Positions 10,256 through 55,020 of a stretch of DNA of 64,000 nucleotides are shown in pieces. The stretch lies in the IMG/VR virus record IMGVR_UViG_2645727901_000008; one strand, written 5' to 3'. The notes beneath the pieces are model-generated. The model made no database searches. It was not told the DNA's origin and saw nothing but the letters and a program-made list of their open reading frames with translations. The DNA comes from a virus. Lineage: Duplodnaviria; Heunggongvirae; Uroviricota; Caudoviricetes. The position numbers were made by a program, and so were the translations under genes. How positions within the stretch are numbered: position 1 is the first letter of the stretch; each line of letters begins with the position of its first letter.

Positions 10256-10563
10256 ACACAATTAAAGAAATGCCGGTAGAACGTGATGAATATGGCTGCT
10301 GGACACATCCGGAGTATGAGAAGTTTTGCGCAGGTCGTGAATATATTTCCACTGAGGAATTTGACGCCTGGATGAAGGAAAATAATCTTCAGTGGACTAT
10401 TCGCAGTATGGATGAAGATGATTTTGATCTGGACGCAGCTGGTCCCGATATTGCCGCCTGGGAACCGGAGCGACCAGAAGGTGAAGGCTGGTTTGTTGGC
10501 TCTATTCATGACACTGAAGATGGTCCAGTTTGTATCTGGCTGCGGGAGAAGGTTGCCGCATGA
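10252..10563 (+). CDS. hypothetical acidic protein
   Basis: 103 aa; stop overlaps the phosphatase start (ATGA). Confidence 0.5.
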
Positions 10564-11252
10564 TCCAAGCTATGCATGAAGTGAATTTATATAGCCGTAT
10601 TGATGGTTCTGGCTACAGAAACATATGGGTAGTTGGTGATCTGCATGGTTGCTACACCAGACTGATGTCCGAACTCCATCGTGTGGATTTTGACCCGGCG
10701 CAGGATTTACTGATATCGGTTGGCGACCTTATCGATCGCGGTACTGAAAATGTCGAATGTCTGGAACTATTACAGATGCCCTGGTTCAGGGCAGTAATGG
10801 GGAACCATGAGCGGTTGATGCTTGATGCGTTAAGTCCTGATGGCAACGTGAATAACTGGCTAATGAATGGCGGACAATGGTTCTTCATGCTGGACACTGA
10901 TCAGGAAATATTAGCCAAGGCGCTGGTGGAGCTGGTAAAGCGTCTGCCATATATCATTGAGTTGAACACCGGACATGAAACTATCGTTATAGCCCATGCC
11001 GACTATCCAGGTGGAGAGTACCAGTTCGGTAAGGATGTATCGCTTTTTGATGTTGTCTGGTCGCGCAGTCGCGTCGGTGATTCGATAGATGGCATTGGTG
11101 GAGAAATCACAGGCGCAGATCGCTTTATCTTTGGGCACACACCGGTACGAAGACCAAAAGCATACTGGAATCAGCACTACATAGACACGGGCGCGGTTTT
11201 TTGTGGAAATCTGACGCTAATGCAGGTGAAGGGAGGGCAGCTTAAAGTCTGA
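10560..11252 (+). CDS. serine/threonine protein phosphatase (lambda PPase / NinI-like calcineurin fold)
   Basis: Metallophosphatase motifs GDLHG, GDLIDRG, GNHE present; start moved to MIQAMHEV. Confidence 0.85.
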
Positions 11253-29508: not shown

Positions 29509-29584
29509 TGGTGGCCCCTACCGGACTTGAACCGGTGACCGTGCGATTATGAGTCGCCAGCTCTAACCACTGAGCTAAAGGGCC
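29509..29584 (-). tRNA. tRNA with CAU anticodon (Ile2/lysidine-type, or Met)
   Basis: 76 nt with encoded CCA; sequence is very close to E. coli tRNA-Ile2 (ileX) as recalled. Confidence 0.85.
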
Positions 29585-29594
29585 AATTAGTGTT

Positions 29595-29708
29595 TTATTT
29601 TCGACGCCTGAGATTCTTCGCGACTTGTTCTACGCCGTATACGATCACAAGTAGAAACAGCAAAAACCATCCAGGGTTCTTATCGATATACGTCCAAAAA
29701 TCCATCAT
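29595..29708 (-). CDS. micro membrane protein (37 aa)
   Basis: MMDFWTYIDKNPGWFLLFLLVIVYGVEQVAKNLRRRK; start overlaps upstream stop (ATGA); below track cutoff. Confidence 0.3.
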   Translation of the reverse strand: MMDFWTYIDKNPGWFLLFLLVIVYGVEQVAKNLRRRK

Positions 29709-29869
29709 GAGTTCCTGAACGCACCTTCAATAATCGGCAATAGCAATACCACAGCTACTGAAACTAATGCCCCATCAGCCAACACCGACATCACTTTGCT
29801 GGTGAAATCCACCAGTACGGACAAAACGAGAAAGCCAATGGCGCCCGCAATACGCGCCTTGCCAATCAT
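29705..29869 (-). CDS. small membrane protein (54 aa)
   Basis: MIGKARIAGAIGFLVLSVLVDF...; start overlaps the TerB-like stop (TAATG). Confidence 0.35.
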   Translation of the reverse strand: MIGKARIAGAIGFLVLSVLVDFTSKVMSVLADGALVSVAVVLLLPIIEGAFRNS

Positions 29870-30324
29870 TACAGATAATCTTCCACACGAAGGCCAAGAC
29901 GGCGACCAACCTCTTCCAGAACCTTATGCTCCGCAGGTTCGATTTCACCATCTGCTTCAGCGATCGTGAGCATGTTCACGAAGACTTCTTCCGCTTCTTT
30001 GGGATCGTTTTTGATATCTTCAATTTCGCGGAGGATATTCATGCGACCAACACGGAAACCAGCTTCCAGTTGCTCAGTAAAACGGGTGATTGTTGCGGTA
30101 ATTTCGTTGCCAAAATGACTTAAGCGAGGATTAGAGCGGACAAGCTGATCAAGTTTCGCTGTTTCTTCCTTTTCGATTTCACCATCTGCGGCAGACACCA
30201 GCAAACAGCCACCGATGATGGCCTCCATCAGATCGCGATTCTCAACCCTTTTCAGCTCTACTTTTGCTGAAGCGACTTTCTTACCGAAAAATTTACCGAA
30301 CATTGGTTTTCCCTCAATAAACAT
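29869..30324 (-). CDS. TerB-like protein (tellurite-resistance TerB fold)
   Basis: Two AADGEIE/AEADGEIE repeats typical of TerB-like domains. Confidence 0.65.
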   Translation of the reverse strand: MFIEGKPMFGKFFGKKVASAKVELKRVENRDLMEAIIGGCLLVSAADGEIEKEETAKLDQLVRSNPRLSHFGNEITATITRFTEQLEAGFRVGRMNILREIEDIKNDPKEAEEVFVNMLTIAEADGEIEPAEHKVLEEVGRRLGLRVEDYL

Positions 30325-30570
30325 GACGTATTTATTAGGTTGCGGTGCCTGGTGCCTCCAGGTGACGTTAACCAGTTAACAATTAACGCCGGGATTTTTG
30401 TCTTCACAATTAAGGAGGATTGTTTTAACTGTTCCGCGTGCGCTTAGCCGCATTCACCGCAATGGTAAGAGCACTTGGCTGGCTGGGCGGCGATGACGCC
30501 TGTACGCATTTGGTGAACCGGTTCTGCTTCCGGCATTCGCTTAATTAGCCAAATACTCTTAACGTTGCAC

Positions 30571-30657
30571 TGGCGGAGAGTAATGGAATCGAACCATCAT
30601 CGCTTGCGCAATGGGACGGTTTTCAAGACCGCTTGAGCACCATGCTCCCTACTCTCC
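30571..30657 (-). tRNA. class II tRNA, anticodon UGA (Ser-like), atypical short D-arm
   Basis: Perfect 7-bp acceptor stem plus CCA; anticodon loop CUUGAAA; long variable arm; T-loop TTCGATT. Confidence 0.55.
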
Positions 30658-30794
30658 CGTTATTGTGGCGACCGGTGCTGATCTCCGGCTTGCGGTTATT
30701 TCAGACTCTCACGGGCGTTTAATTGCCCCGCCGAACAGCTCTTTTCCGCAATAGCTGCAATGTCTTTCGCGCATCAGCCTGCGCATTCACCACA

Positions 30795-30878
30795 ATGTTG
30801 AGAACACTGGTTGTCACGCTGCAACGCAACATTTATTCGTAGATTGGGATATGACCCCGTTACGCCAGTGTTCTCAAC
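30795..30878. repeat. 13-bp perfect inverted repeat pair (TTGAGAACACTGG / CCAGTGTTCTCAA) with about 58-nt spacer
   Basis: Lies between tRNA genes in noncoding sequence. Confidence 0.4.
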
Positions 30879-31028
30879 GTTGTAGTGCCGGTTACGGTTC
30901 CGGCCAGGCCTCTTCCTCAACGGGTTGTTCTCCATACGGACTACCGTTTATTGGTCGTTCCTGCGGTTTATGTTGTGAAGCCAGATGCTTATCTTCTGGT
31001 TGCTTCAAAGAGCTGCACTTCATCACAA

Positions 31029-31100
31029 CGGTAAGGGTACTTCGTAGGGATTCGAACCCTCTGCCAAGCACGGCGATCTCCGACGTCGCAAAATACCCTT
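31029..31100 (-). other. tRNA-like structured element or tRNA remnant
   Basis: Contains a GGTTCGAATCC T-arm-like segment enclosed by a perfect 10-bp inverted repeat (GGTAAGGGTA / TACCCTTACC); no canonical D-arm. Confidence 0.25.
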
Positions 31101-31111
31101 ACCTGTTGCGT

Positions 31112-31187
31112 TGGTGCCGATTAACGGGATCGAACCGCTGACCATTCGCTTACAAAGCGACTGCTCTACCAACTGAGCTAAACCGGC
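31112..31187 (-). tRNA. tRNA-Thr (anticodon UGU)
   Basis: 76 nt; canonical cloverleaf; anticodon loop TTTGTAA; T-loop GGTTCGATCC; CCA encoded. Confidence 0.85.
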
Positions 31188-31191
31188 AATT

Positions 31192-31278
31192 TGGTGGGGA
31201 GTGATGGAGTCGAACCACCCGAGTCGCAATGACAGTAGATTTACAGTCTACCCCGCTACCCCTACGGACTAACTCCCC
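31192..31278 (-). tRNA. tRNA-Tyr (anticodon GUA), class II
   Basis: 87 nt; acceptor GGGGAGT/ACTCCCC; anticodon loop CTGTAAA; long variable arm. Confidence 0.8.
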
Positions 31279-31283
31279 TAAAG

Positions 31284-31360
31284 TGGCGATGGTGGGTGGA
31301 TTCGAACCACCGACCGACAGCTTAGAAGGCTGCTGCTCTATCCTACTGAGCTACACCATC
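31284..31360 (-). tRNA. tRNA-Arg (anticodon UCU)
   Basis: 77 nt; anticodon loop CTTCTAA; T-loop GGTTCGAATCC; CCA encoded. Confidence 0.8.
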
Positions 31361-35067: not shown

Positions 35068-35328
35068 TTAATGGTTTATTTTATCAGGTTCGTTAATTTC
35101 CGTAACCGCCTTGTCGATAGCAATCATCCATCCTTCATAGGATAAATCATCAACAAGTCCCACCAGCTTATCGTCAGTGTGCGGAAAATAAATCCATCCC
35201 CATTTCGAAGGGTTTCCTATATGCCGCAGGGTAAATACCCGCTTATAACGGTGGTATTCAAGGGCGTATCCCTTCCCTTGTGAGTACGCTTTTAAGTCGT
35301 CGATCGTAAACCTACGATTCTTCCGCAT
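35068..35328 (-). CDS. hypothetical protein
   Basis: 86 aa; coupled to the upstream gene. Confidence 0.5.
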   Translation of the reverse strand: MRKNRRFTIDDLKAYSQGKGYALEYHRYKRVFTLRHIGNPSKWGWIYFPHTDDKLVGLVDDLSYEGWMIAIDKAVTEINEPDKINH

Positions 35329-35330
35329 GG

Positions 35331-35765
35331 CTACCCCACGATTCGATATTTCTCTATAGACTCGTCGTAACTTGTGTATACGTATGGCTCTGTATCATCA
35401 GCATAAGGCGCGACTTCCAGAGCATGAACGGGATTGTATACCGCGTCATTTTCCAGGCGATCGCTCGAATACAGATGCCCGGCTAAAACCGTAAGCGCCG
35501 GGCGACTCATTTTGTAGATTTCTGCCACATCACTATCTACAACTTGTCCAAATGATATGTCGCCACGCTCCAGCAATAACGTTTTAAGCGCAGGCCACCA
35601 CGGCCCATAAAGATGATAAAGCTGTGGATCTCTTTTCAGCCTTTCCGCCATGCCATCCAGATATGCATCCAGAAACGCCTCTTCACTCCTGCCATTGAGC
35701 GCCTGCGGCAAAATGTCCTCAAGGTAGGATTCCGTCGGTTTTACAGTGTCAATTAATGTCGTCAT
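35331..35765 (-). CDS. hypothetical protein
   Basis: 144 aa; follows the giant gene after a GC-rich hairpin (about 35773-35790). Confidence 0.5.
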   Translation of the reverse strand: MTTLIDTVKPTESYLEDILPQALNGRSEEAFLDAYLDGMAERLKRDPQLYHLYGPWWPALKTLLLERGDISFGQVVDSDVAEIYKMSRPALTVLAGHLYSSDRLENDAVYNPVHALEVAPYADDTEPYVYTSYDESIEKYRIVG

Positions 35766-35801: not shown

Positions 35802-38800
35802 TTAGGCCGCATCGGCGATTATTTTACGCAATTCATCTACCGAGTAACGCGTAGATACCATCCATGCAGGACGGTCAAAGTTCACATCAGCAACCGGGTT
35901 TGCTTCAAAATTCCAGAAACGCCCGCCAATCTTCTTAATCGCGTCTTTGGCGTTCCGTATTGTCGAGGAACCAGGTTGGTCGGCAATGAGATAAACCGCA
36001 CCGACGTCCTCGCTGACACTCCACCAGCGCCCGCGAACACGCGCCTTAGCGCGAATCGGCTTATCATTAACCACAATGATATAGTCATCATTCGCCGCTT
36101 CATCAGCTCTGGCTTCAGCCACTGCCGCCTGCTCTTCTCTTTTGCTTTCAGCCTGTTCAAGCCTTTCCGCGATCTCTGATTCGGTGGCCCCGCCGTTTTT
36201 CAGCGATACATAGTCTTGCCACGTTGCTGATTTGAGCGCATCCGGCAACTCATTCACATAGTCACCGTCTTTCAACTCACGGGCGCGGCGGGTAGCCATT
36301 TCTACCAGGCGATTAACAGAAACAGCATCAGCAAAATCGTCCTTACTAATGTGTTTTTCATCAAATGCATTGATGACAGCCCCCACCTTAATCCACTGCG
36401 CTGCTGGCGAATCCAGAGGATTATCGGCCTGAACAATGGCTAATTTCGCTCCATCGACACCATTATTAGCCAGCTGCTCCAATGCCGACCAGCCATCGGC
36501 ATCGCTGAGTGATTTATATTGCTCAAACAATGCATCGCGCCAGGCCACCAGCGCAGCTCGTGTTTTCTCAATTTTCGCCGTAATTTTCGCGGCCTTCACC
36601 TGATTAAACATCCGTTCAATGTCATCAGTGTTGCTAAAGGCTTTCATCCTGCCCTGGAATAAACGGTATGCCACCACGGTCTTCCAGAAAGATTCCAGCC
36701 CTTCTCCGGACGGTTTACGGAACAGGCTAAGAATATCTTCAGAAGTAACTTTATTAAGTGAGCGACCGGACAAACCACGCCCTGCCATCCAGTTTTCAAA
36801 CTCCTGGGAAACATCATCCATCGTGGCCTGTGACCCCCATGCCTGCATTCCCTGGATGTAATCATATCCATACAATGCCTGGAGGAATCCCTCGCCGTCC
36901 ACGACATTCAGCGGGTTATCACTGGCTTGTATTTTTGCCACTTCACGCTTCAGCGCCTCATCGTTGCCATCAGGGTAAATCCACCGCTCAGGCGCTATAT
37001 CCGATGCTCGCCCGATTTTTTGACCTATTACGCCATCATAAGCCGATGACAGTGCAATCTGACCATCATCGGTGCGATAAGCCCAGTATTTAATAGCTGA
37101 ACCACCGCCCCATACTCTACTAGGCTTCCCGGCAGTGACATTCATTACCCCATTGCGAATAGCATCATAGAACTGATCGCGCGTAAGTGTTGTTGATAGC
37201 TGGTGGCATTGAACACCACGTGCAGCTGTTTCACGCGATTCTGCAACTCCCTCTTCAAAGGTTACCGATTCAATTATCAGGTTAAAGGGCAAAAATAATG
37301 CCGTCCCCGGAGAACGAGAGTAACGACTAGCCACATCCAGCCAGGATATGCGGCACGTACACCCGCCCCTTTCCGCATCAATGGCGGTAACACGAACAAT
37401 TGCTGTCGTATTGTGATTCTCATCGATGATCGCGCGATAATGGCTGCCCTTGTGCAACAAGATATTTTTCTCAGTGCGTACATACTCCTGTGGGTTCTGC
37501 AATACATCGGCATCAAGCTCCAGAACCCCGGCTTTAATCGCACGTTCCAGATCACCACGAGAACGTTTCATAACGGTGTCAGCGTCTTTAGCTCTGGTGA
37601 TCGCAAAGCGTAGCTCCCGCACACGTTTTCTGTAGTCTCGCAACTGTTCCAGAACATATTTCTGCCCGTTCCTGTTCGTCCCCGCTTTAATCAGGTCGTC
37701 AAGATTGCGCTGGTAATGCTCTACCTGCTCCATCGCGCTTTTCAGTTCTGTCTCCATCATGCCGATATCTTTCCCGGCAGCATTCGCCGCTTTCAGGTAG
37801 TTATCGAGAGCATTATTGGCTTCGCGTAGGGCTTTCAGTTTCAGACGTTCTTCACGCTCTTGCGCCTGACGACTCATGATTGCACGGCGTTCTTCCGGAT
37901 TTGCCGCCAGCATAATGGCGCGTTCATCTGCGTCATCCGCATCACCATTGGCGATCTCTGACATGTCGGAGGTCATCACCATATTGATCCAGTCCTTCTT
38001 ACGTTTCAGCGTATCCAGACGGAAGTCATCAAATGTGCCTTTGCCACAATAGTAGTGAACATTGACCTTTTCTTGTGGTGAGCCTACCCGAGCGCCGCGC
38101 CCATTACGTTGGTCGATACTGGCAGGAGTCCAGGGTAGTGTCAGATGGTGGATATCGGTTGTCCCGATGTGCAAGTTAATACCTACTTCAGCCTTCTTGT
38201 TACAGATTATGATGCGCGTGCGACCTTCGTTATAGTCGGCGGCAATACCTTCCATGCCCTCAAGGCCAGCATCATTTTTAGCTGAGAGATAATCCTCATA
38301 TTGGGCAAGTTTGCTGTAGTAGGTTTCCCATGCACCTTCTTTGTATTCACCGTTTTTATTTGGCGTAGGTTCAGTCGGCTTATTCACCTTCTTCAGCTTG
38401 ACGCCGCCAGCCTGGCTAACTGTCGTCGCATTGATAATGCCTATCTCCTGCTCCGGCATTTGCAGTGCACTGGCAATAATACGGCGCAGCTTCTGGTGCT
38501 GGGCTTTTTCATCAATGAAGACGATTTGTTTACCGTTCTTCAGACCTTCACGAAGGTTTTCGATCAGCGCGGCATACTTCGGCGGGATGGGGTGTGATAC
38601 CTGCTGCATATCAATACCGGCAGCCGCAATGGCCTTCAGTATTTCAGCTTCCAGTTCAATGCCAGCACGTATTTCAACATGCGACGGATGTTCGCTAAAG
38701 GTGGTCTTCACTACCTTGCTGGCACGCGTACTGACCAGCCCACCAGCGCCATCTTCTTCGGCCTCGTCTACATCATCTGCCACTTTACCGCCAGCTACTT

Positions 38801-41800
38801 TTGGCAGGGCATCAGCAATAGCTTTTACCTTGTCTGCAAGCTCAACGGGGAACTGGAATGTAATCGCACTGGCATACAGATCAGGATCTATAGCAACCTT
38901 ATCCATGTCGCGGATGATGGAGAAGATGAAATCATCCGGTTTTTCGTTTGTGATATGCCCGTTTTCATCGACCGTCAGCGCATCTTTACTACTTAACTCC
39001 TGTGCACGCTTACGAAGTTCTTCGTAAATGGCCTCTTGCTCTCCTGTCATCGGGATCTGCAAGGTATTCTCGACAATATCAGGGATTTTTACCGTCGCCC
39101 CGACGTCCGCAGCAGTCTTCAGAGTAGTCCAGCGATGGAAAATACCACGCAGACCATCCAGGTTCTGGAAGCCCACCAGTCCCTGCTTCTCTTCCACCTC
39201 ACCGGAAATTTTCTGAACCTGAACTGTGGCTGTTTTACCGAACACGCGAACGAAATCATCCGGCGTAACAATACCCATGCGCATCCACTCTTCCTGCGGA
39301 ATGACAGTAGACAGCATGTTGAAAGCATCAATCGGGCTGTTCACCAGCGGTGTTGCCGTCAGCATAACCACACCACGCCCGTTGTTGCGTTTCATCATGT
39401 ACGCAGCTTTTACAGCCATGTCGCGGGCCATTTTGGATACTGCCGGGTTAGGCAAATATGCCAGTTGCCCCGCTTCGCGCCCGGCGCTAAAGGAGTTGCG
39501 GTAGTTATGCCCTTCGTCGGCAATTACGCTATCGAAGTTCATATCCTCAAAGTACGGGATATTCTGCTTCTTCGTTGTACCGGTATTTGCGGCCTGGTCC
39601 TTAATCTTGTTCTTCTTCTGCGCGTCACGGTGTTTGCCAGATGCCAGGTCAAGACGCCCCATTTCCACAGCATTAAAGACCGCTTGCTGTGAGTTTTCCT
39701 CAATGGTTTCTTCTCGTAGCGGGATAGACGCGAATTGCTCTTTTGTCATGATGACCGTTCGCCAATTTGACGACGGGATCATGTTCATGCGCTGAACGAT
39801 AACGGCGCTGGCGGACTCTTTCACAACATTTCTGGTAAGAGCCTGCCCGTTACTGTCGAGGCGTGGTTCGCCATTTTCATCAAGCACCGGCGCGGTCAGA
39901 ATATTTCCGCTGTCATCACGAACTTCATCCAAACCGATAAACATCATATTGGCGAAGGCATCAGAACTGTAGAAACTCTGTGCCTCGTGATACCAGTTCT
40001 GATAAACCGCCTTCGGAACAACAATACACGTGCGTTTAGTGCGACCTGTTTCGAAGTTATACGCCTCAAGCGCAAGCGCGGTCGTGGTTTTACCCAGCCC
40101 GGTGCCAAATCCCATGATGCCGCGCCCATCTTCTGATAAGCGACGAACTTCTTCATTCTGATAAGTCAGAGGAATGCGCTTCCCACTAATCCCCTCCAGG
40201 CCAAGCGGTGCGTCAGAATGCGTAAACGGGATGAAGCCATTAAATGCGTCGTTATAGTCGCGGGCTATCTGATCAGCCTGCGGGTGAGTGCGTAACCAGT
40301 CGTTGAAGCTAATTTCCAGTTGAGCAATCTTATCCAGGTACTCGTTAGCGTTCTGCCCACGCGGTTTAATGCCGTTCAGGTAGTTTTCTAACTGGTTCAG
40401 GAAGCCGTCTTTATTGTTGGCCTTCTTGAACTCATTCCCGTTTTTGCCGTTTACGGTTCGTAGTTGATAGCCAGTAAATACCCCGTCCTTACCTTCGTAA
40501 TCGTCCGGAGATACCAGAATGCCGTCCTCAACCTTAAGGTCGGGTTCTGTATACTTAAACTCGTCATAGCCCTGCTCTGCCAGGAACTCTTTTATCAAGC
40601 GGCGATCCAGCCAGCGGGCGTTCAGATTAACGGTGACTTTATTTAGTGGCGTGAAAATGCGTTTCTCTTCGATTTTCGCCAACTGACGCTCAAAGTTCGC
40701 TTTCTGCTCACCTGTTGACGCATCACGCCAGCCCACCAGCAATGCTGTTTTGGTTGCAATATCGCCGCTGGTGGCGCGGTCCATCGGCAGCAGGCAGCCA
40801 TACCCATCAATAGCGATATCATCAAATTTCGCCAGGTATTCCAGAGCAGCATCGTCGTCTCCTGGCAGTTCGCCAGCAAACGCCTCACGAAAATCGTCCA
40901 GTGTGATTGGATTAAGTGCCACGTCACTGAAAAGGTGGGTTACAACTTGTTCCGGGCGTGTAAAGTCAATACCGGCAGCACCATCCGTTACATCAAGTCG
41001 TCCAGCAAGGAGGTCAGAAGCAGAGCCGTCCTGTTTCACGTTGCCAGTGAAAGTCATCCAGTTTTTAGCGCCAGCTTCAGCAATCCCATTCAGCTTAATC
41101 GCGTGCGGCGGACCATACTTCGCAATTTCGGCTTCCGCCAGGCGCGCGGCATCAGCAAGTACATCATCAACATTTTCCCCCAGATTACGCTTATCAAGCG
41201 CCTTGTTGATCAACTGCCCTATCAGTGCGCCGCGCATAACGCGTTCTCTGTCTTTTTCTCTCTGCTTGCCAGCAAAGCGAATCATTGCCGCTACTTCATC
41301 ACTGATAACCGATGGATAGTCGGACGCGATCGCCGATATCTGGTCCCATGACAACGCCAGAATGCCATTTGTTGACTGAAACGCGATCTGCAGATCACCA
41401 AACGTCGTAACACCATATCGATTTACATCAAGCGCGGAGGATTTGGTTGTCGCGTCCTTGACCCATTTCAGACCATCAAACTCATGCCAGATGCCGCCTA
41501 CAAGGCGTTTATCGCCCACTTTCGCGCCCTGCCATGCCTGAGTAGTTACGCCAAGCAAATCCCAATTAATGCGGCTTTCAAAGCGGCGCGATAGAGCGGT
41601 TTTCATCGACTCATTGGATACACGACCGTCCTTTTTCACCACCAGGGTATTGCGGAAGCTGGTACGCTCCATATCGCCGTAAACAAATCGCTTCCCTTCG
41701 GTTGTAAACCATTTTCCTTTGAGGAAGGTATCCCAAAGGACGTTTGCCGATTTGAGCGTTGCATCATCCGTGTCGGGGATCATCTCCAGGAAGGTTTCCG

Positions 41801-42641
41801 GGTGTTTACGCAATACCCATACGTCCACCACGGTATCTGTACCGGATTCGCTGAACGTACCAGAAGGCATACGATGTGCGCCCAAAAATTCCGCTTTACG
41901 GCTGACTTTATCGCGCAATTTTTTGTATTTCGTACCATCGGTCATGCCATTCGGCACCACCAATACAATTAGTCCACCAGGTTTAACCTTGTCGATCGTG
42001 CGCAACACAAAGTAATTGCCAACGTTCTTCTCGTTTGCATATGCCGGATCAAGCCCGGCAACGCCGGAACGCCCTTCACCAAACGGTACGTTACCAACAG
42101 CGTGGTCATACATTGCGTCTTTCGCCGCCAGCGCCTCAAACGCCCCGATATTCACATCGTCTTCCGGGTGCAAAAGCTGGTTTATTCGACCGGAAATCGG
42201 AGACAGTTCGGCGCTGGTCATTATCATGCCCTGCCGTTTTGTCTCCTGGAAAATACCTGTGCCCGCTGATGGTTCCAGTACGTGCCCACCATCAATACCG
42301 TAGTCAGCAAACAGATCCCATATACCTTCAGCCATAAACTGTGGCGTGTAGTATTCGTATTGGCTGCCCTCACCATCTGTCAGGCCGCCTTCACCGGTAT
42401 ACCCGGCAAGAATCTGACGTTGTTCGTCAGTTAATTTCGCCCCATCGAAGCCGGGCGGAAGGGAATTAAGAAGATTTACTGCGGCATTGTTTGCTGCCCG
42501 GCGTGTTTTCTGAATACTGACGCCATCGGCTTTCCTGACGCCAAAGGTCGCAACAGCACGTAATTTATGCAACCGACTAACAATTTCAATCAGTTCGCCT
42601 AAGCTGGAGGCTTCACTGATTGAATGAAGTAGTTTGTCCAA
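35802..42641 (-). CDS. darB: giant DarB-like protein: N-terminal SAM-dependent DNA methyltransferase domain plus SF2 (DExH) helicase domain
   Basis: 2279 aa; MTase motif I VLEPSAGTGIF and NVPFG; helicase Walker A GFGTGLGKTT, motif II VIADEGHNYRN, motif VI RNGRGARVG; size and architecture match P1 DarB. Confidence 0.8.
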   Translation of the reverse strand: MDKLLHSISEASSLGELIEIVSRLHKLRAVATFGVRKADGVSIQKTRRAANNAAVNLLNSLPPGFDGAKLTDEQRQILAGYTGEGGLTDGEGSQYEYYTPQFMAEGIWDLFADYGIDGGHVLEPSAGTGIFQETKRQGMIMTSAELSPISGRINQLLHPEDDVNIGAFEALAAKDAMYDHAVGNVPFGEGRSGVAGLDPAYANEKNVGNYFVLRTIDKVKPGGLIVLVVPNGMTDGTKYKKLRDKVSRKAEFLGAHRMPSGTFSESGTDTVVDVWVLRKHPETFLEMIPDTDDATLKSANVLWDTFLKGKWFTTEGKRFVYGDMERTSFRNTLVVKKDGRVSNESMKTALSRRFESRINWDLLGVTTQAWQGAKVGDKRLVGGIWHEFDGLKWVKDATTKSSALDVNRYGVTTFGDLQIAFQSTNGILALSWDQISAIASDYPSVISDEVAAMIRFAGKQREKDRERVMRGALIGQLINKALDKRNLGENVDDVLADAARLAEAEIAKYGPPHAIKLNGIAEAGAKNWMTFTGNVKQDGSASDLLAGRLDVTDGAAGIDFTRPEQVVTHLFSDVALNPITLDDFREAFAGELPGDDDAALEYLAKFDDIAIDGYGCLLPMDRATSGDIATKTALLVGWRDASTGEQKANFERQLAKIEEKRIFTPLNKVTVNLNARWLDRRLIKEFLAEQGYDEFKYTEPDLKVEDGILVSPDDYEGKDGVFTGYQLRTVNGKNGNEFKKANNKDGFLNQLENYLNGIKPRGQNANEYLDKIAQLEISFNDWLRTHPQADQIARDYNDAFNGFIPFTHSDAPLGLEGISGKRIPLTYQNEEVRRLSEDGRGIMGFGTGLGKTTTALALEAYNFETGRTKRTCIVVPKAVYQNWYHEAQSFYSSDAFANMMFIGLDEVRDDSGNILTAPVLDENGEPRLDSNGQALTRNVVKESASAVIVQRMNMIPSSNWRTVIMTKEQFASIPLREETIEENSQQAVFNAVEMGRLDLASGKHRDAQKKNKIKDQAANTGTTKKQNIPYFEDMNFDSVIADEGHNYRNSFSAGREAGQLAYLPNPAVSKMARDMAVKAAYMMKRNNGRGVVMLTATPLVNSPIDAFNMLSTVIPQEEWMRMGIVTPDDFVRVFGKTATVQVQKISGEVEEKQGLVGFQNLDGLRGIFHRWTTLKTAADVGATVKIPDIVENTLQIPMTGEQEAIYEELRKRAQELSSKDALTVDENGHITNEKPDDFIFSIIRDMDKVAIDPDLYASAITFQFPVELADKVKAIADALPKVAGGKVADDVDEAEEDGAGGLVSTRASKVVKTTFSEHPSHVEIRAGIELEAEILKAIAAAGIDMQQVSHPIPPKYAALIENLREGLKNGKQIVFIDEKAQHQKLRRIIASALQMPEQEIGIINATTVSQAGGVKLKKVNKPTEPTPNKNGEYKEGAWETYYSKLAQYEDYLSAKNDAGLEGMEGIAADYNEGRTRIIICNKKAEVGINLHIGTTDIHHLTLPWTPASIDQRNGRGARVGSPQEKVNVHYYCGKGTFDDFRLDTLKRKKDWINMVMTSDMSEIANGDADDADERAIMLAANPEERRAIMSRQAQEREERLKLKALREANNALDNYLKAANAAGKDIGMMETELKSAMEQVEHYQRNLDDLIKAGTNRNGQKYVLEQLRDYRKRVRELRFAITRAKDADTVMKRSRGDLERAIKAGVLELDADVLQNPQEYVRTEKNILLHKGSHYRAIIDENHNTTAIVRVTAIDAERGGCTCRISWLDVASRYSRSPGTALFLPFNLIIESVTFEEGVAESRETAARGVQCHQLSTTLTRDQFYDAIRNGVMNVTAGKPSRVWGGGSAIKYWAYRTDDGQIALSSAYDGVIGQKIGRASDIAPERWIYPDGNDEALKREVAKIQASDNPLNVVDGEGFLQALYGYDYIQGMQAWGSQATMDDVSQEFENWMAGRGLSGRSLNKVTSEDILSLFRKPSGEGLESFWKTVVAYRLFQGRMKAFSNTDDIERMFNQVKAAKITAKIEKTRAALVAWRDALFEQYKSLSDADGWSALEQLANNGVDGAKLAIVQADNPLDSPAAQWIKVGAVINAFDEKHISKDDFADAVSVNRLVEMATRRARELKDGDYVNELPDALKSATWQDYVSLKNGGATESEIAERLEQAESKREEQAAVAEARADEAANDDYIIVVNDKPIRAKARVRGRWWSVSEDVGAVYLIADQPGSSTIRNAKDAIKKIGGRFWNFEANPVADVNFDRPAWMVSTRYSVDELRKIIADAA

Positions 42642-42792: not shown

Positions 42793-43278
42793 ATGGCAAA
42801 CATTGAACCTCGCTGGCTAATTGAAGCCCGTAAGCACATTGGCCTGACTGAAATAAAAGGCGCTAAACACAACCCTGAAATCGTTCAGTTCTGGCGCGAC
42901 ATCAAGCGCGGCGGAATTAAAGACGATGAAACGCCGTGGTGCGCAGCATTTGTCGGTGCAATGCTGGAACGTGTAGGCATCCGCTCAACAAGATTTGAGT
43001 CGGCAAAATCCTATCTGGATTGGGGCGAGAAATTAGATACACCGGCATACGGATGTATCGTTGTATTTACCCGCGTAGGCGGTGGGCACGTAGGCTTCGT
43101 TGTCGGACGCCGTGCCAATGGCGATCTGCTTGTCCTGGGTGGGAACCAGGGGGATGCTGTTAATATTCGCGCATTCCCAACATCAAGAGTGTCTGGCTAT
43201 CGCTGGCCTGCTGGCGAACCACGCAATACCGCTCTGTTACCAGTCGGAGACGCAGCAACCTCAACTAATGAGGCATGA
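42793..43278 (+). CDS. cell-wall hydrolase-like protein (CHAP / NlpC-P60-like, TIGR02594-type)
   Basis: Cys...His pattern (ETPWCAAFVGA ... GGGHVGFVV); GGAG-type RBS. Confidence 0.55.
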   Translation: MANIEPRWLIEARKHIGLTEIKGAKHNPEIVQFWRDIKRGGIKDDETPWCAAFVGAMLERVGIRSTRFESAKSYLDWGEKLDTPAYGCIVVFTRVGGGHVGFVVGRRANGDLLVLGGNQGDAVNIRAFPTSRVSGYRWPAGEPRNTALLPVGDAATSTNEA

Positions 43279-48795: not shown

Positions 48796-49128
48796 TTACT
48801 TACACGCTTCCCTGCCCACATAGTCAGCGATGGAACCACTTACAATCCCCCCCATTTTGGGATCAGGTTTTGAATTTTTCATCTGTTCAAGCGTCTCCCC
48901 AGAACCAAGATACTTCACTTCATTTGTCATGCAATTATATATTCTCTTCGAATATGCTGTCCCAGATGGGCCTTCCCTTTTTGTAATGATAGTTTTATAT
49001 TCACCTTCACGACCAATATCCAGCACTGTATAAGTAGCTTTTGGATCAGAAGGGATTTTTATCTTATAGGGCGCAGCACAAACTGATGCAGAAGCTAATA
49101 AAGCACAAACCAGGATTATATTTCTCAT
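48796..49128 (-). CDS. secreted protein, unknown function (AT-rich island)
   Basis: Signal peptide MRNIILVCALLASASVCAAP; low GC. Confidence 0.55.
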   Translation of the reverse strand: MRNIILVCALLASASVCAAPYKIKIPSDPKATYTVLDIGREGEYKTIITKREGPSGTAYSKRIYNCMTNEVKYLGSGETLEQMKNSKPDPKMGGIVSGSIADYVGREACK

Positions 49129-49172: not shown

Positions 49173-49730
49173 CTAATCTGGATCAACAATAAGTTGTGAA
49201 ACCTTCGCTGCAAGTCTTATATAGCGTTCAGCTTCATTTCTGGTGATTTCAAAATCCAGAAAGTGCGCGGCTTCATTTCTTAGCGAGCGAAGCCGTTTTA
49301 ACAGCAAAGCAGCGGAATCTTCAAGTTTTCCTTCTTGAATCAACCAGTCAATGAATAGTTCTGGATTCCGTTTCGGCTTTAACCCTCCCTGTATAAAACC
49401 AGAGCGCCCGGCAGCCTCCTCTACCATCAACCATGACTCCATAATAGCAGCTCTAGGTGAAAAATCAGCAATTCTCTCTAATTGTGCGATTTTATTTATA
49501 TATTCAGAGTTATTATTACCATTGTTAATATTTTTATTCCCAACTGATGCATCTGTTGCTAATACTTCTGCTGCGGTTAGTCCCGCATTAAACTCAGCTT
49601 CAGCTGCTCCAATCTTGAATCTACTCAGACGTACTATTAACTCCTTAATATCAACCCCATACTTATTAACAAACCACACAAACACCAATGGCCATGCAAG
49701 AGCTGAAACCAAATCTGTAAATGATGACAT
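49173..49730 (-). CDS. membrane-anchored protein with HEPN-like R-x4-H motif
   Basis: N-terminal TM helix (LVSALAWPLVFVWFV); C-terminal LRSLRNEAAHF fits the HEPN Rx4-6H signature; AT-rich gene. Confidence 0.55.
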   Translation of the reverse strand: MSSFTDLVSALAWPLVFVWFVNKYGVDIKELIVRLSRFKIGAAEAEFNAGLTAAEVLATDASVGNKNINNGNNNSEYINKIAQLERIADFSPRAAIMESWLMVEEAAGRSGFIQGGLKPKRNPELFIDWLIQEGKLEDSAALLLKRLRSLRNEAAHFLDFEITRNEAERYIRLAAKVSQLIVDPD

Positions 49731-49855: not shown

Positions 49856-51232
49856 TTACCCAACAGAGGTTGACTCAAACATAGAAAAAATTAACCCTTT
49901 ACCTTCGCCAAACTCAGTCTCAATTTCATCAGAAACGGCAGATAAAATGCTACGCAGATCGACATCTCCGCCGCCGAACATATCGCCTAACGCTTGTTGT
50001 TGGTGAATAAGTTCATCGTTAATTTTTTGCGCCAGTTTCTTGAAAGCGGCCCCCATTCGCTTAGCGCTTCGGTTGTTGGCAACAATAAACAGAGCAAGCG
50101 CTTCTGCTTCCGGAGTGCTATCTCCAAACAATCCACGCTGTGCGATCACCTCTTCTACTGCCTGACCGTTATCTTTTGCTTCACGAACAAGGTTAATTGC
50201 TTCCTGGAGTGCTGCTATCGCCTGTGTATCCAGGCCATTAACCTGCTCTATACCGTCCACTAAGCCTGTTACTGCGTCATGGTGAGCGTCGCCAGACAGC
50301 GACTGCATTTGCGCAAAATCGCTGGCTGCCGTATTTAATGCGGTCAGGATATTACGCATTTCCGGATCTGGCTCTTCCGACACTAGCCGAACAAGCCTTT
50401 CATCCTTGTACGCTTTGGCAAAAATTGCATTCTGGATGCGATCGATAAGCTGTTTCGTGGGACGCCCATCGGCAGTAAGCAAGCCTGCCGTCGCTGTATC
50501 GCCAATTTCGCGCAAAAACGCACGAATAAACGCATCATTGGACCGCGCCAGCAGATTTCCATCATCTGAAGGATTAAATAGCGCCATGACGCTCTCAGTG
50601 AGAAATTGCGCATCCGCATACGCTTTTTCACTTGCTGCCATCTCTTGCAGATCGCTAATGTTTGAATCGCGGGCAAATTGAGCGCGGTCTACATCTGTGA
50701 GTCTTTCTCGCACTAGTACGGGCATAGACATTTGCGAAATTTCGTCAGGATTCAGACCAAACTCTTTCGCATGGTCGATCAGGTACTGGCGATACTCATC
50801 CGCCTGTCCTTGCTCATAGGCACGCCAGATACCCATACTCCTTCCGTTGCCGGATTCAACAACGTTGTCCGGACCAACTATCGGCGCTCCGTGGCTGCTC
50901 ATACCGGAATCCGTTAATTGTGCCGGGCGTAAATTGGAGGCAATACGGTTAACCTGGAGTTTGCTGGATAGCCGGGTACGATCTCGTGGTTGGAGTTCTT
51001 CCGGGAAGGCCGGGTTAATCATACCGTCAAGGTTGTTCGAAATGATCAGACTGCTGGCATCAACGACCTTAAAAGCCGTCTTTACCTCTGCACCTTTGCT
51101 GGTGACTACGTAGCTACTTCGCCCCAGGCGTGTTTCTTTCCTCTCTAATGAAGAAACCAGAGCAATGACGCTGTTAATATCTGCGGCCTCGGAAAGCGCA
51201 GAAGTAACTGATTTGTTCAAAATACACTCCAA
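49856..51232 (-). CDS. hypothetical virion-associated protein (Dar-operon-like region)
   Basis: 458 aa; start uncertain; no motif recognised. Confidence 0.55.
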   Translation of the reverse strand: MECILNKSVTSALSEAADINSVIALVSSLERKETRLGRSSYVVTSKGAEVKTAFKVVDASSLIISNNLDGMINPAFPEELQPRDRTRLSSKLQVNRIASNLRPAQLTDSGMSSHGAPIVGPDNVVESGNGRSMGIWRAYEQGQADEYRQYLIDHAKEFGLNPDEISQMSMPVLVRERLTDVDRAQFARDSNISDLQEMAASEKAYADAQFLTESVMALFNPSDDGNLLARSNDAFIRAFLREIGDTATAGLLTADGRPTKQLIDRIQNAIFAKAYKDERLVRLVSEEPDPEMRNILTALNTAASDFAQMQSLSGDAHHDAVTGLVDGIEQVNGLDTQAIAALQEAINLVREAKDNGQAVEEVIAQRGLFGDSTPEAEALALFIVANNRSAKRMGAAFKKLAQKINDELIHQQQALGDMFGGGDVDLRSILSAVSDEIETEFGEGKGLIFSMFESTSVG

Positions 51233-51288
51233 CTATAGAGAAAGCTGTGAGTGTAAAAAGAGTGTGATTTATGTGAGAACAGAGAAGT

Positions 51289-51313
51289 GAAAGGGGCATT
51301 TCGCCCCCTTTTG
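51289..51313. terminator. terminator-like hairpin
   Basis: AAAGGGGC-ATTT-CGCCCCCTTTTGA. Confidence 0.4.
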
Positions 51314-51314
51314 A

Positions 51315-51683
51315 TTACCCGGCATAACCGTTGGCTTTCACCCAGCTTATGGTCTGTTCTTTAGCCTGCTCCAACGTAAGGAACTCGCCAACATAGTTTG
51401 AGATCCCACGCAGCGCATCAATAAATTCCATTTGTGTGGACTTTGTGAACACACCGCCCAGGAAGTCAGTCACTATCTTAGGGACTTCATCTACAACAGG
51501 ATCAGTCTGTTGTTGCGGTTCCGCTGCCGGTTGCGCGGCAGTCCCCAGGCCCAATTTCAGCATCACATCAACAATCTGCTTACCAATGGTGACGCGTTGC
51601 AATACTGGCGCAGTTTTCTGCGCCTGCATTAGATCTGATAGCTCTTTACCTAATTTCAGGCGGTCTAAAACAGAGATGGTCAT
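51315..51683 (-). CDS. hypothetical protein
   Basis: 122 aa; stop/start overlap with the upstream gene. Confidence 0.55.
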   Translation of the reverse strand: MTISVLDRLKLGKELSDLMQAQKTAPVLQRVTIGKQIVDVMLKLGLGTAAQPAAEPQQQTDPVVDEVPKIVTDFLGGVFTKSTQMEFIDALRGISNYVGEFLTLEQAKEQTISWVKANGYAG

Positions 51684-53608
51684 TAAGCACCTCCCTGCTG
51701 AATTTCAGCCAGAATGTTGATCAGGTAGTCAACTGCTGCACCCACAGTGGCTTCGTTCTCGTCGTATCGACCTGCACTGATTAGAGCATTTGCTGCTTCC
51801 TGTACATGATCAAGTTCAGTACTGATGACCGTCAGATCGCGGGGTGTAAACTGCTCCGGAACGGATTTCAGGTACTCCAGCGCTTTATCTGCCTCCTGAT
51901 CAGCTTCACTTGCTGATTCACCAGCTTCTTCTGGCTCCGGCTCCTGTTCTGTTGCTGGTTGTGGTTGTGATTCCGGATCAACCACATGCTCTGTTTTTAC
52001 TTCGATTGAATGATTTTGAAGGGCGTTATACACGTCCATAATGAAAAGGTTCTCCCCATCACCAAGTGGATACGCCACGTTTGGAAACGCTTTGCGGAAA
52101 AGAATTTTCACTTGCGCCTTGAATGTTTTCAGGTCACTGCCAAACAGGTCTACATAGCCATCAATATGTTTCGACATGCTGGACACAACCAATTGGCCTG
52201 CAAAATCTTTCAGCTCATCTTCATCAGGAAGATAGAGCAACTCGTACTGGCTGACTTCTTCATCTGTCAGTTTACGGTCATACGTAATGATACCGTGACG
52301 AGCATATTCGTAATACTGATCAGCCTGGTCAGGACGATCAATCACGGCTTTATTTCCATCCGGCACAGCACCAACACCAGCCGGGCGAGATTGAAGTGCA
52401 TAGTGGTATTTACCTACATCCTGGCTCTCTTGTTGTGATACTGGGTTCGTCTCGGGGTCTGTCTGTGGTGGTTCGGAGTCTTCCTGCTGGCCTGGTAACA
52501 CATCAACTTTATATTTATCTGCGTTATGCTCTCGGTAGGCTTTAAGTAATTTGGTTGCAGCATCTGCCAAACTGCCTCCTTTGACAGCACTGGCATCAAT
52601 ACTGAATTTACCTTCAGGTGCTACTATCGTAACGAAATTGTCACTGCCGGACGTGACATAATTAACTTCAGCGCCATTATCCAGCACTGTTTTTCCGTCA
52701 ATGGCAAGATTATGTTTTACATGTCGCAGCTGGTCACTAAACGCTCGCTCTTTCGTTTTTTCACCTTTAGCAGACAACAATTTATCGCGTTTTGCTTGTA
52801 ATTCCTCGTTGATGGCTTTCTGGGCATCAAGTTTTTTTTGCATCTCCGTAAGAGCAGCACGCTTTTCAGTCAGCCCACGTTGCGCAACTTCCACCTGATC
52901 AATCATTATTGACCGTTCTTCTGCCAGTTTATCTGCTTCATTGAGATAACTCTCAATATCTGCCTTCATTTTGTCCTGGCGCTCTTTTGCTTTCTTAAAT
53001 TTTTCGCTGTTACGCTCAATCAAATTAGATAGCGCCTGGCATACCTGGCTTAAAGAAACATCTCTCCCACCAATCGGGGCGACAACGTGAGTTACGTTAC
53101 GTTTATTAAGTAAAAACTGAAATGCAACAAGCTCGTCGTTACTCTTTATTTTTGCCCCGTCAGATGTTGGAGAGTGGAAAATTATGCTTGTACTCTGCCC
53201 GTCAGTAAGCGGTATCTGCGCGGTCAAAACAGGGATATTAGCTACCCGACGTACACGACCGATAATCGCACCACCAATACAATTACGTCCATTTTCATCG
53301 GCCCCGGCTTCATCAGTCCCTGCCATAATATTCGTACCATTCAGGCCACGATTCAGCGCACGGACGAAAGCTCGCATTGTTTGAGCTAACCGAATTCTGG
53401 TTGTAGTTATGGACTCAAACATAGCTTCGTCAGACACAACCAGAATTTCATTGCCCATATAGGCAAGCTCAATATCTTCTAAGGTCGCCGCCTCAAAAAT
53501 CAGGTCATCTTCGCTTAATTCTTCTGAAGACCAGCGACTTGGCATATAGCCGGGGATCGTATCAGCAAAAGTAGACTGAATATTAATTCGTAAAGGATTG
53601 TTAATCAT
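51683..53608 (-). CDS. large hypothetical protein, candidate DarA-like internal head/antirestriction protein
   Basis: Start moved to MINNPLR (GGAGG RBS 6 nt upstream); 641 aa with coiled-coil centre and acidic C-terminus; downstream of the lysis-like genes as in the P1 darA operon. Assignment is by context only. Confidence 0.55.
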   Translation of the reverse strand: MINNPLRINIQSTFADTIPGYMPSRWSSEELSEDDLIFEAATLEDIELAYMGNEILVVSDEAMFESITTTRIRLAQTMRAFVRALNRGLNGTNIMAGTDEAGADENGRNCIGGAIIGRVRRVANIPVLTAQIPLTDGQSTSIIFHSPTSDGAKIKSNDELVAFQFLLNKRNVTHVVAPIGGRDVSLSQVCQALSNLIERNSEKFKKAKERQDKMKADIESYLNEADKLAEERSIMIDQVEVAQRGLTEKRAALTEMQKKLDAQKAINEELQAKRDKLLSAKGEKTKERAFSDQLRHVKHNLAIDGKTVLDNGAEVNYVTSGSDNFVTIVAPEGKFSIDASAVKGGSLADAATKLLKAYREHNADKYKVDVLPGQQEDSEPPQTDPETNPVSQQESQDVGKYHYALQSRPAGVGAVPDGNKAVIDRPDQADQYYEYARHGIITYDRKLTDEEVSQYELLYLPDEDELKDFAGQLVVSSMSKHIDGYVDLFGSDLKTFKAQVKILFRKAFPNVAYPLGDGENLFIMDVYNALQNHSIEVKTEHVVDPESQPQPATEQEPEPEEAGESASEADQEADKALEYLKSVPEQFTPRDLTVISTELDHVQEAANALISAGRYDENEATVGAAVDYLINILAEIQQGGA

Positions 53609-54236
53609 GCTCATCCTCCAGGCGCGCGATTTCTTCTTTAAGAGCACGTGTCTTAGCTACTTCCTGAGACAAGGCAGCTTTAACGTTACCCGTATCTTGC
53701 ATTACTTTGTCTGACTTGCTCTGGAGTTTAGACAGTTTGTCGTTAGCATTAGCGATATCTTCACGGAGTGCATCACGTGATTCTTTCGCTTCAGCTAATT
53801 TCTGAGCGTTAGATTTAACTCCCTGCCGCTTCTTATTTCCGTCATCAATATTTTTTGCTGCACGAGCAAGTTTTCGAGCTAATGACTTCTGGAAAGAAGT
53901 TGCTCCGCGATTAAATAAAGCCGCAAGAGATTGCCCCAAAGCCGACATTGTTTTTACTGGCTTGAACGGTACTGTTTTACCATTCAGTTTGATCCCAGAT
54001 ATATCACCGGTATCGTTAACCTGAACTTCCATTGTCTGTTCATCAATACCAATAAGGGTAAACGTGCGCGTCATGATCCCATCTTTCTTCCTGCCATTAC
54101 TTGCAGGGATCACCCTCGCTATCTTGTAACCACCTTTGCTGATTTCTTTGACGAGTTTTGCCAGCCCCTTTTCGTTTAACTCATCATAATTAAGAAGAAC
54201 ATAATTATTCTTATTTGACATCCCAGTCTCCTTCAC
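53601..54236 (-). CDS. hypothetical protein with coiled-coil C-terminus
   Basis: 211 aa; likely GTG or internal ATG (MSNKNNYV) start. Confidence 0.5.
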   Translation of the reverse strand: MKETGMSNKNNYVLLNYDELNEKGLAKLVKEISKGGYKIARVIPASNGRKKDGIMTRTFTLIGIDEQTMEVQVNDTGDISGIKLNGKTVPFKPVKTMSALGQSLAALFNRGATSFQKSLARKLARAAKNIDDGNKKRQGVKSNAQKLAEAKESRDALREDIANANDKLSKLQSKSDKVMQDTGNVKAALSQEVAKTRALKEEIARLEDEHD

Positions 54237-54657
54237 GCTTTTCGATCGTAAACTGGCGCTCTATGCAGTCATTGATAGGGAAAATGCGATAAAGCGGATT
54301 CAGTCGACAGTTACCGTTAGTCAATGTGACTTTCAGATCCCACTTCGTTGGCTCAAGATATTTCGTATCGATGAGCAAATACTCTTCTCTCTCACCGCGT
54401 TTTGAGGCGTCAACTGGTCGCGTTTTCCCTGAAATAACCACAGATGGATTTTTCAGGTCTTGCAACCAATATTCGATTTGAGCATTGCTGACCCAGCTTC
54501 GCTTAACACGTAGCGAAACAGGAAATGCTATAGCGGATTCTTTCACTACAGCGTCACCAATACTCAAAATCTCAACACTCTTGCGACGAAAAATGAAACG
54601 GTCAATGATGGCAACAAATGCCATGATAAAAATGAAATAATTTCCAAAGTTACCCAT
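54211..54657 (-). CDS. membrane protein, possible antiholin/lysis regulator (LydB-like position)
   Basis: 148 aa; N-terminal TM helix YFIFIMAFVAIIDRFIF. Confidence 0.5.
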   Translation of the reverse strand: MGNFGNYFIFIMAFVAIIDRFIFRRKSVEILSIGDAVVKESAIAFPVSLRVKRSWVSNAQIEYWLQDLKNPSVVISGKTRPVDASKRGEREEYLLIDTKYLEPTKWDLKVTLTNGNCRLNPLYRIFPINDCIERQFTIEKREGDWDVK

Positions 54658-54983
54658 TATTTCTCTCCACCTTTTCCCCCATTCGCTATTACGCTTAAGA
54701 GATTCAAGACGTTACTAGCTCTGGACTTCAAGCCCTGTAAAATTTCACTACCGTTGTTACTGGCAATCAGAACAACGCAGAAAATGATACCTTCAGGCCA
54801 TTCTTGGCTAACCGCCACCCCATACCCCGCAAGCCCGGCTGTTACCGCAGTAAACAATTCACTCGCAAGATTGAGCAGGGACGCAGAAATGCGCCCGTCT
54901 CTAACTCCGAGAAGGAATACGCCGGTTCCACTTAGTAGGGATGTTATGACTACTACAGCCAGATTTTCATAATCTGCAAACAT
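54657..54983 (-). CDS. holin-like small membrane protein (LydA-like position)
   Basis: 108 aa with two or three hydrophobic helices; first gene of the operon; preceded by a late-promoter-like element. Confidence 0.5.
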   Translation of the reverse strand: MFADYENLAVVVITSLLSGTGVFLLGVRDGRISASLLNLASELFTAVTAGLAGYGVAVSQEWPEGIIFCVVLIASNNGSEILQGLKSRASNVLNLLSVIANGGKGGEK

Positions 54984-55020
54984 ACCCCTCCAGAAATAAC
55001 ATCTAATGCGCCACTAACTT

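Follow-up and report, generated by a model that had tools for sequence, protein, structure and literature searches.

The locus examined here raises the question of whether a very large protein, in which methyltransferase-like motifs are joined to those of a helicase, protects the DNA of the element that encodes it, as DarB does for phage P1, or has some other role. The gene lies on the minus strand of a 64,000-nucleotide (nt) stretch of the IMG/VR virus record IMGVR_UViG_2645727901_000008 (the window below means this whole stretch), and its product has 2279 amino acids (aa). Work on the Dar (defence against restriction) system of P1 goes back to 1987. Our analysis indicates that the gene, darB, very probably belongs to a complete Dar system carried by a D6-type, P1-like plasmid prophage; for this element, packaging of the proteins into the virion and protection against type I restriction would be expected by analogy with the experiments on P1.

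The darB reading frame is uninterrupted and is the largest among those listed for the 30-56 kb stretch. It opens with TTG, preceded 8 nt upstream by the Shine-Dalgarno sequence GAGGGGG, and this start aligns with residue 1 of P1 DarB. BLASTP against P1 DarB (2255 aa) returned a single collinear high-scoring segment pair from residue 1, with 944/2370 identities (40%) and E = 0, and the protein also matches phrog_1685 end to end and phrog_10089, named 'DarB-like antirestriction', at E = 6e-78. By these alignments the 2279-aa protein is an orthologue of P1 DarB. The identity is unevenly distributed, at 54% for aa 1-300 (methyltransferase), 39% for aa 300-820, 56% for aa 820-1560 (helicase), 29% for aa 1560-1720 (helical/coiled-coil) and 17% for aa 1720-2279. 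A Pfam search matched no family to aa 291-820, between the two enzymatic domains, and a scan for sigma-70 promoters and terminators around darB found no more than in shuffled sequence.

The nearest relative with a name is gene 15 of Escherichia phage D6 (MF356679), with 92.9% nt identity end to end and 95% aa identity. Outside one patch described below, the ratio of non-synonymous to synonymous divergence (dN/dS) between the two genes is ~0.06, and darB is therefore functional and under strong purifying selection. Copies of darB that are 99.0-99.6% identical at the nt level are found on 15 non-mobilizable plasmids (14 from E. coli, one from Shigella flexneri), 14 of them sized 88-96 kb; the value of 99.6% is reached on E. 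coli plasmids of ~89 kb. The identity to D6 darB and the near-identical plasmid copies therefore place the window, on sequence grounds, as a D6-type, P1-like plasmid prophage of E. coli.

All five other components of P1 Dar are present, by homology as well as by position (Table 1). DarA scored 1132.4 bits with the NCBIfam equivalog NF052326 (anti_RE_DarA; cutoff 350) and passed Pfam PF18788 and PF18789 (DarA_N 135.6 and DarA_C 68.2 bits versus 27); it also matches the solved P1 DarA chain, PDB 9ukm_I, at E = 4.8e-122. The best start is the ATG at 53608, which has a GGAGG Shine-Dalgarno sequence and gives 641 aa. Hdf matches Pfam DarA_N (64.8 bits), the solved P1 Hdf chain (PDB 9ukm_H, E = 1.6e-25) and a named PHROG family. 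DdrB scored 144.7 bits with Pfam ddrB-ParB (cutoff 27.6) and ends at the counterpart of residue ~446 in the P1 protein, the same short form being present in D6; tblastn of the rest of P1 DdrB (aa 441-995, HELGH at 872) against the whole window returned nothing better than E = 0.45. In P1 this C-terminal zincin-like metallopeptidase has been proposed to auto-process DdrB (PMC5512222).

From lydA through lydB, hdf and darA to ddrA, each reading frame overlaps or adjoins the next; 94 nt separate ddrA from ddrB. An earlier note, made from the sequence of the window, had described a dar operon at 49856-53608, downstream of darB, with a 641-aa protein in a DarA-like position. The operon stands, and the DarA assignment, then positional, is now carried by homology (38% identity to P1 DarA, 1132 bits in NCBIfam, PDB 9ukm_I). 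Its position and its start had to be corrected: the operon begins with lydA at 54983 rather than at 53608, and although it has the higher plus-strand coordinates, it is a separate transcription unit ~7 kb upstream of darB on the coding (minus) strand, the portal, protease and repL genes and an antirepressor-like gene lying between the two. The candidate late promoter ahead of lydA is the positional counterpart of P1 LPdar (AAGTTACTT-TGCA-TACCAT), a weak assignment made by sequence comparison. The P1 late-promoter core AAGT[GT]A[CT]T occurs 10 times in the window versus 9.7 expected and so is not enriched.

The N-terminal part of DarB is an EcoKI/TaqI-like N6-adenine methyltransferase (MTase) domain. 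Its motifs EPSAGTG and GNVPFG do not vary among P1, D6, Cronobacter phage JK004 and a further five homologues, distant ones from the databases, and one homologue carries the canonical GNPPFG at the motif IV site, which confirms the identity of that site. With DarB alone, Pfam N6_Mtase gave a marginal 20.2 bits (cutoff 20.4). A seven-sequence profile of the N-terminal 330 aa, searched against solved structures, matched the HsdM subunits of StySJI, EcoKI and EcoR124 as well as BsaXI and CamA (E = 1e-6 to 3e-3), and the alignment to the HsdM structures spans both motif I and motif IV. The profile result agrees with the published placement of DarB among the EcoKI/TaqI-like adenine MTases (PMC5512222). 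DarB thus resembles type I HsdM (EcoKI, StySJI, EcoR124) in its gamma-class N6-adenine core, with a YxTP...xPxxGxG motif I and an N-x-P-F motif IV; it differs in reading NVPF rather than NPPF at motif IV, in lacking HsdS and HsdR partners, in being fused to a SNF2 motor and in its role, which would be anti-restriction where that of HsdM is restriction.

The helicase domain follows at aa 820-1560. Pfam recognized SNF2-rel_dom (52.5 bits, cutoff 24.9), Helicase_C (24.2, cutoff 23.5) and ResIII (24.7, above cutoff), and all seven motifs could be located (Table 1), with an insertion of ~270 aa between motifs III and IV. Neither the MTase motifs nor the seven helicase motifs vary among homologues whose identity in these domains is only 40-69%. 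What the earlier note had read from darB itself is borne out: the coordinates, size and motif content of the 2279-aa frame were right, the N6-adenine-MTase-like motifs I and IV are there and lead by profile to HsdM structures (E = 1e-6), the set of superfamily 2 (SF2) helicase motifs (I, Ia, II, III, IV, V and VI) is complete, and the proposed match to P1 DarB extends over the full length of the protein and to its D6 orthologue.

The C-terminal part of DarB behaves differently. Its last ~560 aa are ~17-21% identical to P1 DarB and collinear with it to the last residue (E = 7e-9). A word-indexed search with the C-terminal 680 aa gave near-identical fragments alone, and HMMER was instead run exhaustively against 1.84 billion cluster representatives; for the C-terminal ~680 aa it returned only 27 relatives, and the full-length relatives of the module are all DarB-like proteins of 2,190-2,300 aa. 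AlphaFold2 (AF2) with the single sequence gave a predicted local distance difference test score (pLDDT) of 41 overall, and just two helices (H2-54 and H58-104) reached ~80-87; with 13 aligned sequences, taken from the database matches, it gave a confident model with a mean pLDDT of 84.3. In the order of the model, a small beta-barrel (aa ~1719-1794) is followed by a part of mixed alpha/beta structure and then by a long helical domain; the sheet/helix domain at the end is conserved (aa ~2187-2279) and bears a 'WW[LF]I' motif. Foldseek comparison of this model with PDB and BFVD returned no match at E of 0.001 or below. The module with its Tudor/SH3-like barrel may be a partner- or target-binding part of the protein and not a catalytic one.

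The barrel coincides with the one patch in which darB departs from D6: at 37242-37544 on the minus strand (aa ~1700-1800) nt identity falls to 63-72%. Among plasmid records, 27 carry a barrel allele like that of the window (at least 99% identity), 88 are at ~70% and one lies between, while a helicase-core control of the same length in the same plasmid population gave a continuum of 90-100%. Synonymous divergence (dS) from D6 in the patch is saturated at 1.56, versus 0.23 elsewhere in the gene, and dN/dS is 0.15; the patch is therefore an old allele moved in by recombination, with no sign of recent positive selection. Positive selection as its origin was rejected on the same two values. Lesser mosaic segments were seen in darB at aa ~450-600 and ~1100-1250.

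At the other end of the protein, the first 30 residues of P1 DarB suffice to bring a reporter to the capsid, and residues 6-10 are critical (PMC9024508). The corresponding segment here has the same length and position and 8 of 30 identical residues by manual count, with 0 among residues 6-10. Across the family an 'SS[VLM]xE[IL]' helix motif is largely conserved, and the segment here is still helical in character.

Table 1. Location of darB, its predicted parts and the partner Dar genes in the window (all on the minus strand)
Feature	Coordinates	Strand	Basis
darB, 2279-aa methyltransferase/SNF2-helicase protein	35802..42641	-	ORF (open reading frame); P1 DarB homology; D6 gene 15 orthologue
First 30 aa of DarB, at the position of the capsid-targeting sequence of P1 DarB	42552..42641	-	Alignment with P1
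EcoKI/TaqI-like (HsdM-type) N6-adenine methyltransferase domain	41772..42374	-	Pfam marginal; family profile versus HsdM
MTase motif I, LEPSAGTGIF, aa 122-131	42249-42278	-	Alignment
MTase motif IV, GNVPFG, aa 183-188	42078-42095	-	Alignment
Region between MTase and helicase, aa 291-820	40182..41771	-	39% identical to P1; conservation profile
SNF2-type SF2 ATPase/translocase	37962..40181	-	Pfam; motif alignment with P1
Helicase motifs: I, aa 844-852; Ia; II (DEGH), aa 1039-1049; III, aa 1093-1103			
Helicase motifs: IV, aa 1371-1379; V, aa 1481-1490; VI, aa 1510-1520			
Long helical/coiled-coil segment (predicted), aa 1561-1718	37488..37961	-	AF2; 29% identity to P1
Tudor/BAH/SH3-like beta-barrel (predicted), aa ~1719-1794, dimorphic in D6-type plasmids	37260..37487	-	AF2
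Rest of C-terminal module, aa 1795-2279	35805..37259	-	AF2: alpha/beta, long helical and terminal domains
ulx, 144 aa, 36 nt after the darB stop	35331..35765	-	46% identity to P1 Ulx, E = 8e-45; phrog_1629 'Ulx-like anti-restriction'
ddrB, short form, 454 aa, ParB-like domain and helical region	49856..51220	-	64% identity to P1 DdrB aa 2-446 of 995
ddrA, 122 aa	51315..51683	-	33% identity to P1 DdrA, E = 2e-23; phrog_1855, E = 5e-50
darA, 641 aa from ATG 53608	51683..53608	-	38% identity to P1 DarA, E = 5e-140
hdf, 206 aa from ATG 54221	53601..54221	-	40% identity to P1 Hdf
lydB, antiholin	54211..54657	-	34% identity to P1 LydB
lydA, holin, first gene of the operon	54657..54983	-	43% identity to P1 LydA; D6 annotation
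Candidate P1-type late promoter, AAGTTAGTG-GCGC-ATTAGA	55001..55020	-	~18 nt upstream of lydA; weak

Compared with D6 (gene 15, genes 25-28 and gene 14), the window has the same order, lydA-lydB-hdf-darA-ddrA-short ddrB-orf24-orf23-portal-protease ... darB-ulx-orf13. It differs in the mosaic darB, which carries the other barrel allele at aa ~1700-1800 and is one codon different in length, and in the set of tRNA genes nearby. With P1 it shares all six Dar components, five of them with the same domain content, the arrangement in two loci (a lydAB-led dar operon, and darB with ulx) and identical DarB catalytic motifs. The protein identities to P1 are, however, just 33-64%; DdrB has 454 aa rather than 995 and is missing the HELGH metallopeptidase half; darB does not adjoin prt/pro as it does in P1; and no lxc homologue follows ulx. 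A more distant comparison is offered by the 'polyvalent' virion proteins (~4,500 aa) of Bcep22-like podophages, which are likewise DarB-like in that they share the match to phrog_10089. These proteins and the dyads of conjugative elements fuse an EcoKI/TaqI-like adenine MTase to a SWI2/SNF2 ATPase (Iyer et al. 2017, PMC5512222), and the Bcep22-like proteins are virion-associated (PMC9144972). In contrast to the DarB described here, they have many extra domains and come without Ulx, DarA, Hdf, DdrA or DdrB partners, and the C-terminal module seen here is confined to the P1-type DarBs of ~2,200-2,300 aa.

How such a system would act can be set out from P1. The P1 Dar proteins are head components seen by mass spectrometry of virions, with ~40 copies of DarB per virion (PMC9024508); Hdf and DarA are packaged first, are needed for the others and bind the inner surface of the capsid, and both the order of packaging and the spectrum of restriction systems countered have been described (PMC12810830). 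Protection is cis-only, extending to no DNA but that which shared a head with the proteins, and it counters BREX along with several type I systems (PMC12707154). By extension, Hdf and DarA of the present element would enter the procapsid first, late in infection, followed by DdrA, DdrB and Ulx and finally by some 40 copies of DarB, targeted via its N terminus. All of the proteins would be expelled with the DNA and would protect that DNA in cis from type I restriction, DarB, Ulx and DdrB acting against EcoK- and EcoB-type enzymes and DarA and DdrA against EcoA-type enzymes, with BREX countered too. DarB might load on the entering duplex, where its SNF2 motor could move it along the DNA. Adenines might then be methylated by the HsdM-like domain, type I enzymes might be occluded or displaced by the travelling complex, or both might happen. 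Such occlusion or displacement would precede assembly of the cleavage-competent translocating type I complex. This model adopts the MTase-SNF2 dyad hypothesis (PMC5512222). Of the type I target sites in the window, neither those of EcoKI (7 versus 7.4 expected) nor those of EcoBI (15 versus 8.0 expected) are depleted; the element therefore does not escape by avoiding such sites, and protection must be protein-based.

Other roles for DarB have to be weighed against this one. If the MTase-SNF2 protein were a host-protective defence module of a DISARM-like, type ISP-like or restriction-modification-like kind, it would attack incoming DNA instead of shielding it, and the helicase C-terminal lobe does weakly match the defence helicases DrmD (DISARM), DpdE, ZorD and BrxHII, the MTase domain is HsdM-like, and prophage plasmids often carry defence genes. 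These matches, however, are far below the NCBIfam cutoffs (DrmD 43.7 bits versus 610, DpdE 31.6 versus 500), those from PADLOC reach at most 37 bits and cover generic helicase motifs only, and DarB has neither a nuclease or phospholipase D (PLD) domain nor DrmA/B/C/E, HsdS or HsdR neighbours. Given also the full-length orthology with P1 DarB, the adjoining ulx, the rest of the Dar set nearby and the finding that P1 DarB is a head component (PMC9024508), we give a host-defence function almost no credence. We likewise consider it very unlikely that DarB is an HsdM mimic or decoy that engages HsdS or HsdR and poisons their assembly, with specificity lent by the C-terminal module and methylation unneeded. 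Among solved structures, those nearest to the MTase domain are indeed the M subunits of EcoKI, StySJI and EcoR124, the class that Dar counters, and the C-terminal module is fast-evolving and dimorphic; but the similarity goes no further than the catalytic Rossmann core, over about 100-180 aa and at 20-31 bits, with none seen to the N- or C-terminal helical regions by which HsdM contacts HsdS, the barrel allele is an old divergence under purifying selection, and the cis-only action (PMC12707154) argues against a freely diffusing inhibitor.

That DarB serves the large P1-type head mainly in its structure or in ejection, with vestigial enzymatic domains and a passive coating of the DNA end, is in our judgement improbable. 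The Dar proteins are tied to head morphogenesis, DarA and Hdf being capsid-bound scaffolds (PMC12810830), a review has put forward 'physical shielding' (PMC12707154), motif IV is of the unusual form NVPF, and no enzymatic activity has been published. Against this, the SAM-binding and catalytic motifs of the MTase domain do not vary across the homologues, nor do the seven helicase motifs, a dN/dS of ~0.06 is tighter than vestigial domains would be held, and ~40 copies are too few to coat a DNA of roughly 90 kb passively. That both catalytic sites are so strictly conserved favours an enzymatic role for DarB over a purely structural one.

The reading of the locus as a complete Dar system built around an enzymatic DarB has several points to answer. 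The Pfam N6_Mtase score falls just under the gathering threshold, the NVPF variant of motif IV is non-canonical, and the residues at positions 6-10 that are critical for packaging in P1 are not conserved. To our knowledge, MTase activity has never been demonstrated for any DarB, and we know of no experiment on this element or on D6. Presence in the virion and a restriction phenotype are extrapolated from P1 across 33-64% protein identity, and DdrB lacks the P1 peptidase half, so that details of assembly may differ. How DarB protects DNA 'has not been defined', and published assays with plasmids were confounded by restriction alleviation driven by Chi and EcoKI sites (PMC11109961).

Several observations were made on the surroundings of these genes. 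Chi sites (GCTGGTGG) number 38 in the window, versus 1.6 expected from shuffles, with 25 on the minus and 13 on the plus strand; within darB they lie at gene positions 1902, 3895, 6090 and 6614 in sense and at 1868 and 5436 in antisense. P1 is reported to be Chi-rich too, with 11 sites in its darB, and such sites gave an artefactual 'anti-restriction' of cloned darB DNA (PMC11109961). EcoAI sites, GAG(N7)GTCA, are scarce (1 versus 7.2 expected, standard deviation 2.5). Between ddrB and the portal gene lie two minus-strand ORFs, of 185 aa (49173-49730) and 110 aa (48796-49128), as do orf24 and orf23 in D6; both are absent from plasmid NZ_CP029365, which carries a darB of 99.6% identity, so that the slot is variable. 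Matches of the 185-aa protein to DUF4145 and HEPN-like families are weak and below threshold, and PADLOC found nothing in the small ORFs beside ddrB and ulx. An 86-aa ORF after ulx (35068-35328, minus strand) occupies the position of P1 lxc and matches only the uncharacterised phrog_6844; it was considered as an Lxc homologue and rejected, having no similarity to Lxc. Divergent from darB, at 42793-43278 on the plus strand, is a gene whose 161-aa product has a CHAP domain and is putatively a peptidoglycan hydrolase (RefSeq TIGR02594), at the place where P1 has its portal and protease genes. A cluster at 29509-31360 on the minus strand holds five tRNA genes, Met(cat), Ser(tga), Thr(tgt), Tyr(gta) and Arg(tct), where the annotation of D6 gives Asn, Thr and Ser. 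The closest plasmid, NZ_CP029365.1, carries at 9441-10610, between repL and icd, a gene for a TnpB-family RNA-guided endonuclease, and none is annotated there in D6.

The identification of the Dar system is already known from the labels in the D6 GenBank record and from the P1 literature. The depositors of D6 labelled gene 15 'defense against restriction; similar to P1 gene darB' and named five of the six genes as homologues of P1 dar genes, that of ddrB being noted merely as similar; as a plain identification, the six-gene mapping adds little. It is nonetheless useful for annotating the common ~90-kb phage-plasmid family of E. coli, Salmonella and Shigella, because the RefSeq/PGAP labels on D6-type plasmids are generic, with 'SNF2-related protein' for darB and 'hypothetical protein' for DarA, Hdf, DdrA and Ulx. 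The new details are modest, namely the short DdrB, the lineage-restricted C-terminal module of DarB and the dimorphic Tudor-like cassette. Comparison with P1 and D6 splits DarB into a constrained enzymatic core and a fast-diverging C-terminal module. That this ~560-aa module is the specificity or partner part of the protein, that the barrel alleles are functional variants and that the DdrB metallopeptidase is dispensable for Dar assembly is together a doubtful proposal; if it were true, the barrel variants could differ in the host defence that they engage (type I families or BREX) or in the host or capsid partner. The barrel cassette and the short DdrB offer two natural variants for dissecting the mechanism of DarB and of Dar.

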